A DNA stretch of 24,000 nucleotides from contig BPTK01000014.1 in NCBI GenBank assembly GCA_023705905.1, positions 10,740 to 34,739 on the forward strand. The letters are read 5' to 3'. Made by a program: the position numbers and the translations under genes. Source of the DNA: Candidatus Heimdallarchaeota archaeon (GTDB taxonomy: Archaea > Asgardarchaeota > Heimdallarchaeia > Heimdallarchaeales > Heimdallarchaeaceae). The first letter of the stretch is position 1. Each line of letters opens with the position of its first letter. The notes below the pieces were generated by a model, which saw nothing but the letters and a program-made list of their open reading frames with translations, had not been told where the DNA came from and made no database searches. This document shows positions 8,438 through 16,942 of the stretch, piece after piece.

Positions 8438-9091
8438 TCAAAGGAACCTATGTTCTAAAGGTATTCCTAGTCCTGTTAGTGAAAATCCTTCGCTCGACAA
8501 ACCCATTTTAGTTAGCAAATCAACAACTGATGATTCTATCATCATCGATAGCTCTTCTCTACTTATTTTCTGTATTTCCTCGATGGAATATTGTCCCGAA
8601 AGTTCTCTCATTGCTTCTTTTATTATAAACAACACTTGCATTCTCATTTCTTTGGAAGAGAATTGGATTGAATCTTTTAAAATATTCAAGCAGAATACTT
8701 TCGGAGCGGAAATAGAAATCGATAGAGAACCTGACGCACCTATTTGTACATTATCTTTGGTTAATACTCCTTGTTCTTGAGGTATTCCCCACTTAACATT
8801 AAAAGACTGTCCTTCCAAGAAAACAATCTTCAAACCTTCTGTTCCTTTCTTCCTTTCTATTTTAAACATACCACTAGCTAGTTCGTCAATTATCTGCTCG
8901 TTTTCTATTACTACTGCTTTCTCAGCTATCTTTACTATCATCCCCTCTGTTTTCTTCAAATCAAAATCCTTTTGCCAGTTTTCATGAGCATGTGGATAAA
9001 CCCATGCAATCGTTTCTGAATCTCTTTCGCTTTTGATTATTCTTTTATCGTCAGAAGGACTAAAATCCTTTTTAATTATGAAAGACATCAT
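8438..9091 (-). CDS. SPFH/band-7-like protein (YdjI / COG4260-like)
   Basis: The motif order matches my recollection of the B. subtilis YdjI family: ETIAWVYP (compare DTLLWRYP), a beta-rich core with WGIPQEQGVLTKDNVQIGASGSLSISI (compare WGTPNPITLRD...RAFGIYSYRI), and a C-terminal helical part ending GFSLTGLGIPLE (compare SSFVVENISLPEE). A strong SD (GAGGTGA) sits just upstream of the ATGATG start, 11 nt after the stop of the upstream gene. Confidence 0.6.
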   Translation of the reverse strand: MMSFIIKKDFSPSDDKRIIKSERDSETIAWVYPHAHENWQKDFDLKKTEGMIVKIAEKAVVIENEQIIDELASGMFKIERKKGTEGLKIVFLEGQSFNVKWGIPQEQGVLTKDNVQIGASGSLSISISAPKVFCLNILKDSIQFSSKEMRMQVLFIIKEAMRELSGQYSIEEIQKISREELSMMIESSVVDLLTKMGLSSEGFSLTGLGIPLEHRFL

Positions 9092-9102
9092 TTCACCTCT
9101 AT

Positions 9103-14150: not shown

Positions 14151-14720
14151 TTACTCAACTTCTTTTTTTTCCCAGTGCTCAATTATCAGATTCTGTTGTG
14201 CTGCCCACCAATAAAACACCTCTCTAATAAAGAAGTGACTTATTGTTAATCTTGGATTCCAAGCTTCATCTACTGTTTCCATGTGCTCATGACAGATCAT
14301 AACGAACTTTTCTCCGTTCTCTTCTTCCCAGATATTCTTCAAAAACACTTTTCCTGCATATTCTGCTATTGATTCTTCTGCAAAAGCTCTCGGGCATGCA
14401 TTTGGATAAGCACTTGGTAGAAGTATCACCATTTTGAACCTTATTTCTGGTTTAGATGGTACTTGCAAATATCCATCCCACTTCATAAAATTGTATTTTG
14501 GGTTCTTACTTGGAGCTAGGAAAAACCAACTTTTCCCTCCTTTTTTCTGTAAAAATTGAACATATTTTGCTAGATTTAATATTTCTATTTTCACTCTTTC
14601 CTGCCATTTTGGATGCTTTGGATTAATTTCAGTTAGTGCTTCGGGGAACTTAACTAAAACTTTCTCTGCTAGCGTCTCTTCCCATTTATTGTTTTCTTCT
14701 GTTATTTGAATGACCCCCAG
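14151..14720 (-). CDS. UFC1-like E2 (UFM1-conjugating-enzyme-like); start codon unresolved
   Basis: Matches to my recollection of human UFC1: WFFLAPSKNP (compare WFRLESNKEG), a catalytic-Cys context FVMICHEHM (compare GKICLTDHF), and no HPN motif. The ORF track starts at a GTG at 14594. However, the frame is open back to 14720, and the extension (..LAEKVLVKFPEALTEINPKHPKWQERVKIEILNL) aligns with the UFC1 N-terminal helix (..[33 protein letters not shown]). Confidence 0.8.
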   Translation of the reverse strand: MGVIQITEENNKWEETLAEKVLVKFPEALTEINPKHPKWQERVKIEILNLAKYVQFLQKKGGKSWFFLAPSKNPKYNFMKWDGYLQVPSKPEIRFKMVILLPSAYPNACPRAFAEESIAEYAGKVFLKNIWEEENGEKFVMICHEHMETVDEAWNPRLTISHFFIREVFYWWAAQQNLIIEHWEKKEVE

Positions 14721-14724
14721 TTAT

Positions 14725-14988
14725 TTATCCTACTATCCCACGGTTGATAACTTGAAAAGCTGTTCCGTATTTGTTTATTATCTCATCCACTGTAGAGTTG
14801 AAATCTGTTATTGTAAGAGTGTTACCCATTTCTGAAGATACAGCTATCTGCTCAGTTGCTATACTGAATTTCTTTGCAACTTCTACAACTAATTCGTGGA
14901 AAATTATTTCTCCTGGTGTTTCAAAAGGTATCTGTTTATGTTCTGTTCCAACAACATTTGTAAAGTATATTCTTTTTAGTGAACCCAT
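14725..14988 (-). CDS. UFM1-like ubiquitin-fold modifier with pre-exposed C-terminal Gly
   Basis: 87 aa. ELVVEVAKKFSIATEQIAVSSEMGNTL and the terminal AFQVINRGIVG-stop parallel human UFM1 [27 protein letters not shown] and ELRIIPRDRVG(SC). It has a single terminal Gly preceded by Val, as in mature UFM1. Confidence 0.8.
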   Translation of the reverse strand: MGSLKRIYFTNVVGTEHKQIPFETPGEIIFHELVVEVAKKFSIATEQIAVSSEMGNTLTITDFNSTVDEIINKYGTAFQVINRGIVG

Positions 14989-15026: not shown

Positions 15027-16079
15027 TTAAATCTTTTTCGCTAAATCCTCAACAATTTGAGCGATTTTAGCGAAATTTTCTTCTTTTTCTATGTTATTTT
15101 TGGTATTTCTAATCGTTTTTAACATTAACTCCCTCTTTTTCTCATTTTTTGAAGAGAAATATTCTACTCTAAATTCCAATAGCTGAAGGAAAGAGAGTAT
15201 AGATTCTTTATCTTTCTTCGAAACATAAAATTTCCAATTTACATTATCATAAAGAAATTCTATTCTTACCGGTTTAGATATTTTTCCCTCCGCTATTATA
15301 GTGTTTTTCAGCTGATAATACATGTCATCTATGAATGCTTGTTTCATCAAAGGTTTTATTGAAGAGAGAGTAGTTTTTTCTTGTGCGCATATGTTAGCAT
15401 GCAAATCCATAGTAAACACCAAATCATCAGCTTTTGCCAGATTATCTTCAAACACTGAAAATCTTACAAAACACTCATTTCCTTCAAGTTTGTCTGTAGA
15501 TATTGATCCACTTAACAGATTTTGTTTGTATTCTATCTGTTTAACTTCAAAACTTTCCAAAATCTCCCTCATTCTAGATGAAACTGTTTGAATATCTAGT
15601 TCAGTTCCTTGAGGAAGATTAATTTTTGCCTTTGCTATGAATCTTATTGATTGTGGTACTTTTATTGAACTAACCTTTACTTTGATTTCCTCTACAGATT
15701 CATCTTTCAGTTGGTAATATTTTGTCTCTTTCACATTGGTAACTATTGATAAGAAATATGGATAAACTGATGCAAACTGTTTAACTGTGTGATTATCTGT
15801 AGAACTATGGAACACTTTTCCTACATGGGAGTGATAGATCCCCACTATCCCTATTCCCCTAGGAATTGCTTTTGAGATTTCCATTACCTCTTCTTGTGAA
15901 GGCTCAGCAATTATTTGATTTTGCATTTTATATTGTTTGCAGGGAACACTTGAGACGACGAATAGCTGATCCTTATAGTCATAACCTAGCAACCAACCAT
16001 AGATTTCTATTGTAGGAAAAGCATATGCATGTCTCTTTATATCGTCTGCTACACTATTGCAAACATTTACTTTACTCAT
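15027..16079 (-). CDS. JAB/MPN+ (JAMM) metalloprotease with about 220-aa C-terminal domain of unknown function
   Basis: N-terminal 130 aa or so contain the Glu of EIYGWLLGY and the motif YHSHVGKVFHSSTD, which is HxH-x6-S-x2-D, one residue shorter than canonical HxHx7Sx2D. The start ATG overlaps the E1 stop as ATGA at 16076-16079. Confidence 0.8.
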   Translation of the reverse strand: MSKVNVCNSVADDIKRHAYAFPTIEIYGWLLGYDYKDQLFVVSSVPCKQYKMQNQIIAEPSQEEVMEISKAIPRGIGIVGIYHSHVGKVFHSSTDNHTVKQFASVYPYFLSIVTNVKETKYYQLKDESVEEIKVKVSSIKVPQSIRFIAKAKINLPQGTELDIQTVSSRMREILESFEVKQIEYKQNLLSGSISTDKLEGNECFVRFSVFEDNLAKADDLVFTMDLHANICAQEKTTLSSIKPLMKQAFIDDMYYQLKNTIIAEGKISKPVRIEFLYDNVNWKFYVSKKDKESILSFLQLLEFRVEYFSSKNEKKRELMLKTIRNTKNNIEKEENFAKIAQIVEDLAKKI

Positions 16080-16942
16080 TCTTCTACCTCCTTTATTTCT
16101 TCTTCCAAATCTTCCATTAATTCTGACAATTCTTTGCCTTCGGTTAATTTTTCTATTTTTTCAAAAGATTGCTTTTTTTCCTTTTTAGAGAAGATTTTAT
16201 CTCCACAAACATGGCAGTTTGGATCATTTGGCATGGTTTGCTTTAGATAATGGTCTGTTAAAGCGTTAAACCCTATGTAATCTGGTATCGTTCCAAATTT
16301 CAGTAGATACTTTAAACTTATTTCAGTAACAAATGAAGCCACAATTGCTATTGTTGAAGGTAGAGAAGCTGTACAATCTTTGCCCTCTTTCTTCTCTCCC
16401 AAATCTATTGAACCTGTGCAAGCATAGCAAGCATTTTCTCGTGGTTTAACTAAGTGTACATACCCTCCTAAACCAGAACGTGTTGCTCCTGAATCTACGT
16501 ATGGACGATTAAGTTCGACACATTTACTGTTGACATACAATCTTGCTGGTAAATTATCCAAACATGAGATTGTGAGACTATTATCATTTATCAGTTCATC
16601 AAACTTCTCTTCGAAATCAGATGAACACACATCTACAAAATAACCATTTATTTCCACATCAGAATTTATTTTCTTTAAAACATCCTCTGCTGCTTTAACC
16701 TTTGTTTGACCAATCTGATCTACTGTGTAAAAGAGTCTATTTAGATTAACTTCTTCTACATAATCTAAATCGATAATATTCAACTCTCCCACCCCACATC
16801 GTGCTAGCATTTCAGCAGCTACACTCCCCACGCCCCCCACACCTATTATCAATACGTTCATTTTGGCAAGATCGAGCCAATCTACCTCTAGTCCAAACTC
16901 ACTCAATGATTTCAATCTTGTATAGCGATTTTCATCTTCCAT
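16076..16942 (-). CDS. UBA5-like E1 (ThiF/MoeB-fold adenylating enzyme of the UFM1 branch)
   Basis: [41 protein letters not shown] compares with recalled human UBA5 [41 protein letters not shown]. The catalytic-Cys block [30 protein letters not shown] compares with [30 protein letters not shown]. Zn-site pairs CYAC and NPNCHVC compare with CFAC and NPQCDDRNC. It has a single-domain, minimal E1 architecture with an acidic C-terminal tail. Confidence 0.9.
   Translation of the reverse strand: [288 protein letters not shown]

Follow-up and report, generated by a model that had tools for sequence, protein, structure and literature searches.

A probable ATA start codon for a UFC1-like E2 enzyme in Heimdallarchaeaceae

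The window, i.e., the whole stretch of 24,000 nucleotides analysed here, encodes a UFC1-like E2 enzyme whose gene appears to be intact and to start at an ATA codon (minus strand, 14705-14703), giving a protein of 184 residues; on comparison of sequences we place the probability of this reading at roughly 0.8. The 42 start-less codons at the beginning of the E2 frame are, as a stretch, real coding sequence and part of the E2 domain, and standard gene finders almost certainly miss 37 residues at the N-terminus of the enzyme that are conserved and structured. The features on which this reading is based are the following:

16942..16076, minus strand: ThiF-type E1, upstream gene of the operon
16079..15027, minus strand: JAB/MPN protease, upstream gene of the operon, with a 4-nt overlap with the E1
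14988..14725, minus strand: Ubl gene, 87 aa, ending NRGIVG-TAA, directly 5' of the E2 gene
14721..14727, minus strand: TAA-A-TAA, comprising the Ubl stop (14727-14725), one base and an E2-frame stop (14723-14721)
14718..14720, minus strand: CTG, first codon past the in-frame TAA, an alternative near-cognate start that overlaps the Shine-Dalgarno (SD)-like sequence
14711..14718, minus strand: SD-like sequence GGGGGTCA, ending 5 nt 5' of the ATA
14711-14709, minus strand: ATT, a further in-frame near-cognate codon
14703..14705, minus strand: ATA, proposed initiation codon, 7 codons before a conserved Trp
14151..14705, minus strand: proposed full coding sequence of the UFC1-like E2 (ATA start, 184 codons plus stop), from the open frame, Pfam, Foldseek and the N-termini of orthologues
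14595..14702, minus strand: the 36 codons after the ATA, lost if the gene is called from GTG 14594
14592..14594, minus strand: GTG, codon 43, first canonical start in the E2 frame and the choice of gene finders
14292..14294, minus strand: TGT, codon of the presumed catalytic cysteine, Cys143 (MICHEHM motif)

From CTG 14720 the E2 frame stays open for 189 codons and closes with the stop at 14151; its first 42 codons (LGVIQ...KWQER) include no ATG, GTG or TTG and are followed by GTG 14594. A preliminary description of this locus had already reported the start-less stretch, the arrangement of the two stops and the SD-like sequence 5 nt from the ATA, with ATT 14711 and CTG 14720 as further candidate codons; translation returned the same 42 codons, the Ubl TAA, single base and second TAA were reproduced letter for letter, and the SD-like sequence and all three codons were found where described. 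Start-less 5' leaders of at least 40 codons occur in only 58 of the 2604 stop-to-stop ORFs of at least 150 codons in the whole genome (2.2%, at 32% G+C), so that the leader of the E2 gene is beyond chance. The gene order E1-JAB-Ubl-E2, followed further downstream by EAP30/Vps22-like and SPFH genes, is found again as E1-JAB-Ubl-E2-EAP30-SPFH in L002 and L003, the relatives named here being Heimdallarchaeaceae and other Asgard archaea.

With residues numbered on the extended translation from CTG 14720 (GTG 14594 being residue 43), the Pfam family UFC1 (PF08694) covers residues 21-176 with 26.7 bits (E = 5e-6), a borderline score just above the curated cut-off of 25 bits, and phmmer against PDB sequences aligns the protein from residue 18 onward with UFC1 from residues 8-14 onward. 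The extension is conserved in 26/26 homologues (alignment A1), with the pattern W..S..DE...EFP....GPKHP.WK.RVK. An AlphaFold2 model computed from a 26-homologue alignment has a mean pLDDT of 86.7, with values below 50 only at residues 1-7 and between 86 and 94 at residues 11-40, residues 8-42 being confident overall. These three lines of evidence—conservation in relatives, alignment with UFC1 in Pfam and the PDB, and a confident model—identify the extension as coding. Since helix 1 of the model spans residues 39-59, a start at residue 43 would cut it. The preliminary description had named a structure prediction as a check, which places residues 8-42 in the confident fold, and had equated the extension with the N-terminal helix of UFC1; it is indeed a UFC1-type N-terminal segment, but one that consists of a loop and the opening turn of helix 1.

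The overall fold points in the same direction: the best 26 Foldseek matches are all UFC1 structures (TM 0.6-0.7 over 165-179 aligned columns), as against TM values of 0.32-0.40 with ordinary (canonical) E2s, and the model comprises both the UBC core fold and the UFC1-specific segment before helix 1. Cys143 lies in a near-invariant column of the alignment and, on this basis, is presumed to be the catalytic cysteine. Eukaryotic UFC1 (PF08694; PDB 2Z6O, 3EVX, 8C0D) is the best match of the window E2 in both fold and sequence, and the extension encodes precisely the N-terminal segment that precedes helix 1 there, although identity is only ~18-22% and the protease partner in the window operon is a JAB/MPN enzyme rather than UFSP. 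The remaining operon context consists of the ThiF E1 and a Ubl that ends in VG and has no Pfam match. UFC1 has been reported only in eukaryotes (Picchianti et al. 2023, PMC10183829), and our literature search found no paper on UFC1-like E2s in Asgard archaea, where such a family is noteworthy in its own right.

Comparative evidence for the ATA comes from related loci, of which ~100 were gathered and inspected at each Ubl-E2 junction. An E2 tree computed on the first 12 loci groups the window with its closest relatives in one Heimdallarchaeaceae clade (support 98/54), to which four loci of like junction layout were added after the tree was made, giving a group of 16 with 65-87% protein identity to the window. 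An SD-like 8-mer—in the versions GGGGGTCA, GGGGGTAA, GGGGGTTC, GGAGGTAA, GGAGGAGA, AAGGGTGA or GAGGTA—followed after 5-6 nt by an in-frame ATA, ATT or ATG is present in all 16. The start position is occupied as follows:

ATA, n=5: window, L001, L040, L146, L148
ATT, n=10: L002, L008, L041, L009, L003, L010, L011, L012, L042, L147
ATG, n=1: L145

The alignment of orthologues, another of the checks named beforehand, thus finds the extension in frame and conserved, with ATA or ATT at the position of the window ATA in 15/16 loci and ATG at the same codon in the remaining one, which supports the non-canonical start proposed behind GGGGGTCA. The distance from the Ubl stop to the start is 19 nt in the window and 19, 20, 26, 36 or 65 nt across the clade (remainders modulo 3 of 1, 2, 2, 0 and 2, respectively), and the relative reading frame of Ubl and E2 therefore differs among the loci. 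From the start codon to the conserved Trp there are 7, 8, 10 or 12 codons, and the codon directly before the G-run is CTG, GTG, ATG, TCG or the stop TAG. No canonical start is found upstream of or in the conserved N-terminus in 8/12 loci of the junction survey, and in L011, a complete genome, any such codon lies more than 45 codons beyond the Trp. In L001/L040, L010 and L042, a canonical codon (GTG or ATG) situated 3-5 codons further upstream, within the SD or next to it, could serve as the start.

The spacing and strength of the SD at the ATA fit this genome. It contains GGATCACCTCCT, a putative 16S tail that agrees with the conserved 3' terminus of archaeal 16S rRNA. In 1230 genes with an unambiguous ATG, the most frequent positions relative to the start are 7-9 nt upstream for GGAGG and 4 and 6 nt upstream for GGTGA. 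In the window, the G-run precedes the ATA by 8 nt and ATT 14711 by only 2 nt, and it lies 3' of CTG 14720. Base pairing to the 16S tail is predicted at -9.6 kcal/mol for ATA 14705, in the 6th percentile of 1231 ATG genes, and at -4.0 and -5.5 kcal/mol for CTG 14720 and GTG 14594, respectively, both about the median of the same genes. A start at ATT 14711 was rejected, the SD being 2 nt away and the codon being ACA in L001; together with CTG 14720 and a truncated protein, which the preliminary description had also kept as alternatives, it fails on conservation. A scan of tRNAs for an unusual initiator found nothing unusual among the 24-31 recovered, an incomplete set that includes one tRNA(CAU) with a GGG/CCC anticodon stem.

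According to the preferred reading, E1, JAB, Ubl and E2 would be carried on one polycistronic mRNA and translation of the E2 would begin at AUA 14705-14703, the 30S subunit being positioned by the strong SD GGGGGUCA located 5 nt 5' of the AUA. The initiator Met-tRNA would read the near-cognate AUA with a mismatch at the third position, residue 1 would be Met, and the weak codon would be offset by the strong SD, leaving E2 output probably below that of the Ubl. The anatomy of the ORFs, the homology and fold of the extension and the conserved module of SD, spacer and ATA/ATT, with ATG at this site in relatives, are shown here; initiation at the ATA, methionine as first residue and an attenuating purpose are what we infer. 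In archaea, the factor aIF1 reportedly selects against non-canonical starts (PMC8211752; PMC7531240), which is the main ground for caution about an ATA start and at the same time a possible regulatory handle.

Three properties expected of a near-cognate start coincide at the junction: no canonical start is available that would keep the E2 domain intact, a ribosome-binding site lies at functional distance (GGGGGTCA + 5 nt), and the codon is kept or swapped for a canonical start in orthologues. AUU start codons are known from bacterial infC (IF3) and from E. coli pcnB, and NCBI table 11 lists ATT, ATC and ATA as rare starts. As in infC and pcnB, an Ile-type near-cognate codon with a good SD is the sole possible start of the window E2, is conserved in orthologues and interchangeable with ATG, and presumably entails low output. 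Unlike in infC and pcnB, the apparatus is archaeal (aIF1, aIF1A, aIF2), both ATA and ATT are used, and the gene encodes a Ubl-conjugating enzyme in a Ubl operon, where factor-dependent autoregulation is without evidence.

Closer to the present case, an ATT start was inferred for the AtubA tubulin of a Kariarchaeaceae (Heimdallarchaeia) MAG (Sci Adv 2026, PMC13394414). It is of the same archaeal class, with an annotated protein too short for the fold, an upstream ATT that restores the conserved N-terminus and a plausibly spaced ribosome-binding site, but it concerns one gene in a methods note, whereas the window E2 codon is followed through 16 loci and the states of sister clades, and more ATT-start genes are identified here in the same genome. 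In Haloferax, ~30% of putative initiation sites were near-cognate and were set aside (Gelsinger et al. 2020, PMC7261190), and a literature search found no paper on systematic AUU/AUA starts in archaea.

The sister clades surveyed (Loki, Odin, Hermod and Sigyn types) show two further arrangements of the Ubl-E2 pair. In 28 NTGA-overlap loci of Loki/Odin type (including L013, L014, L016, L018, L020-L022, L031, L035, L043 and L045-L047; for example ggTTGAg), an ATG, GTG or TTG located 7 codons before the Trp overlaps the Ubl stop, and its occurrence at the same position makes the window ATA positionally homologous to bona fide starts. In at least 17 loci, Ubl and E2 form a single in-frame ORF of ~270 aa in which RGIVG leads directly into the E2. 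Such fusions are found in many Loki-, Hermod- and Sigyn-type relatives (L019, L026, L029, L015, L024, L058, L074, L088, L068, L027, L064, L065, L044, L032, L085, L082 and L086; also L005 of genome G025), and the E2 tree indicates that they were gained or lost several times, with at least 5 changes. An in-frame fusion implies proteolytic release of the modifier, and it is presumably the JAB protease that frees the Ubl.

These arrangements bear on how ribosomes would reach the ATA, which could be supplied with ribosomes straight from termination at the Ubl stop, through termination-reinitiation or short 70S scanning, and not with fresh 30S subunits. The Ubl stop and the start are 19-20 nt apart in 10/15 clade loci with a measured gap, and the 4-nt NTGA overlap or fusion in Loki-type relatives marks coupling as the ancestral habit of the pair; the 28 overlapping orthologous pairs have the same layout as the 4-nt-overlap termination-reinitiation pairs described by Huber et al. 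(PMC10666635). In contrast to those pairs, the window and its clade have an SD of their own, a non-canonical start and gaps of 19 nt and 19-65 nt, respectively, instead of the overlap or gap of at most ~10 nt that characterizes reinitiation pairs and is seen in the Loki-type NTGA loci. In Haloferax volcanii, 13-14 nt already cause a 40-60% loss of reinitiation, which is nearly gone at 19-23 nt and abolished at 22-23 nt (PMC10666635). Furthermore, L012, L147 and L042 keep the SD + ATT module despite gaps of 36-65 nt, and the strong SD speaks for independent recruitment of ribosomes. A start dependent on termination at the Ubl is therefore unlikely.

Initiation at CTG 14720-14718, alone or besides the ATA, would make the protein 5 residues longer; CTG is a near-cognate codon too, and at the homologous position L001/L040 carry GTG and L010 carries ATG. 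Such a start is improbable all the same, given that L003 has a TAG stop at this position and L011 a TCG, that the SD sits downstream of the CTG with just the near-median pairing upstream of it, and that residues 1-7 are disordered in the AlphaFold2 model. More improbable again is a 147-residue truncated E2 started at GTG 14594, with the upstream frame as a relic. This GTG is the sole canonical start in the E2 frame, and relatives have been gene-called in similarly shortened form (P0004, P0006, P0008, P0010). Starting there would, however, produce a protein that lacks 35 conserved, confidently folded residues together with the opening turn of helix 1, from a codon with a weak SD; in L011 the 45 codons that follow the Trp include no canonical start, and a relic frame would not remain open and conserved in 16 loci. 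Orthologues that begin at the GTG equivalent with an unconserved extension, which would have spoken for truncation, are not what is found, the codon being ATT (Ile) in L001, and GTG 14594 is probably an internal Val codon. Least credible of all are recoding by read-through and frameshift or hop into a Ubl-E2 fusion, an assembly error or a pseudogene: in-frame fusions do exist in relatives, and the GGA before the Ubl stop (14730-14728) and GGG 14717-14715 could in principle act as take-off and landing codons, but stops close both the Ubl and E2 frames, the offset between them is inconsistent among clade members, as opposed to what frameshift or bypass would demand, a hop finds no in-frame Gly landing codon in L002, and 16 independent assemblies with the same layout exclude an assembly error.

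If translation does start at the ATA, its persistence invites a more tentative proposal: that ATA/ATT is a selected attenuator which has held the E2 well below the Ubl throughout the history of the clade, in place of the 1:1 output that fused or overlap-coupled genes give in Lokiarchaeia, and which may be tunable through aIF1; the Heimdall group may likewise tolerate AUU, AUA or AUC starts on ordinary genes (RNase HII, a glycosyltransferase, tubulin). We consider this possible rather than likely. Were such tolerance real, the proteomes of the Heimdall group would be systematically mis-annotated at their N-termini. The series of states of one Ubl-E2 pair, from fusion through 4-nt overlap to an SD with a weak start, is also a natural experiment in how a conjugation cascade has its stoichiometry set.

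The genome of the window was scanned for other start-less leaders with an in-register SD and an ATH codon, and three further genes with support from homology were obtained:

G000:C23:10561-11244 (= L113:162-842), plus strand: RNase HII, ATT start with GAAGGTGA 5 nt upstream
G000:C74:5314-6048 (= L104:115-849), minus strand: GT2 glycosyltransferase, AGGAGGA, 7 nt, then ATT
G000:C72:16171-18180 (= L103:272-2281), plus strand: PUA-PAPS-reductase-ferredoxin protein, first canonical start at residue 57

The SD pairings of all three are in the top 1-8%. RNase HII is the clearest case because an in-frame TAG immediately precedes the ATT. Its residues 10-208 correspond to positions 1-198 of the Pfam RNase_HII profile, and the first canonical start, at residue 24, comes only after the catalytic DEAGRG. 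The layout is identical in four congeners (5 species in all), and elsewhere in the genus this position holds ATG, ATT or ATC behind GGTG(A). The GT2 glycosyltransferase probably starts at its ATT as well, position 1 of its Pfam profile being aligned at residue 4 and the first canonical start being residue 41; no orthologue was found at E <= 1e-40 in 40 relatives. An ATT start of the PUA-PAPS-reductase gene is also probable, but on weaker grounds than for the other two. The bare combination of SD and ATH in start-less leaders is not significantly enriched in frame genome-wide (4:2:1; 7:8:5 in a second count), and it is thus homology, not the motif, that picks out real cases.

The E2 start represents a clade-wide and well-supported addition to the few hints of AUU/AUA starts in Asgard archaea, and it bears on how strictly start codons were chosen in the lineage ancestral to eukaryotes. 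Its practical value is a corrected N-terminus for an E2 family that gene finders mis-call. Public calls of the family are inconsistent and often truncated: ACTSQE_14240 has 169 aa, and a call of the window gene would have 147 aa. Expression or modelling of the Asgard UFC1-like enzyme from such calls loses part of the fold. P0004, P0006 (NCBI ACTSQE_14240), P0008, P0010 and P0026 begin at an internal GTG, TTG or ATG and are without 13-27 N-terminal residues that the full-length ORF of the window aligns, and P0003 is called from a GTG within the SD.

Some minor observations concern the distribution of the gene and its surroundings. The E2 was found in 0/24 other genomes of the window's genus and in 6/6 genomes from four other genera of the family, at genome completeness of 72-92%; this distribution could reflect loss in the genus, lateral acquisition or a mis-binned contig. 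The very last residue of the Ubl is Gly in the window and in most of the clade, and in L011 (Ca. Heimdallarchaeum endolithica; ~1440-1500) it ends RGVVGL-stop, one residue past the terminal Gly. GGATCACCTCCT together with a downstream spacer of ~25 nt occurs twice in the genome, at G000:C6:219 and C6:10622, with 10.4 kb between the copies; ahead of the first one stand ...CTGCGG, ~30 extra nt and then TGGATCACCTCCT, and the extra nucleotides may be a small insertion near the 3' end of the 16S rRNA. Finally, the SPFH gene (window 9086-9100, minus strand), whose SD GAGGTGA had been drawn on for comparison with that of the E2, does carry this motif, but at 9099-9093 and not at 9094-9100. It has two tandem ATGs, at 9091 and 9088, and since GAGGTGA lies 1 nt from the former and 4 nt from the latter, the second ATG is the better-placed start.
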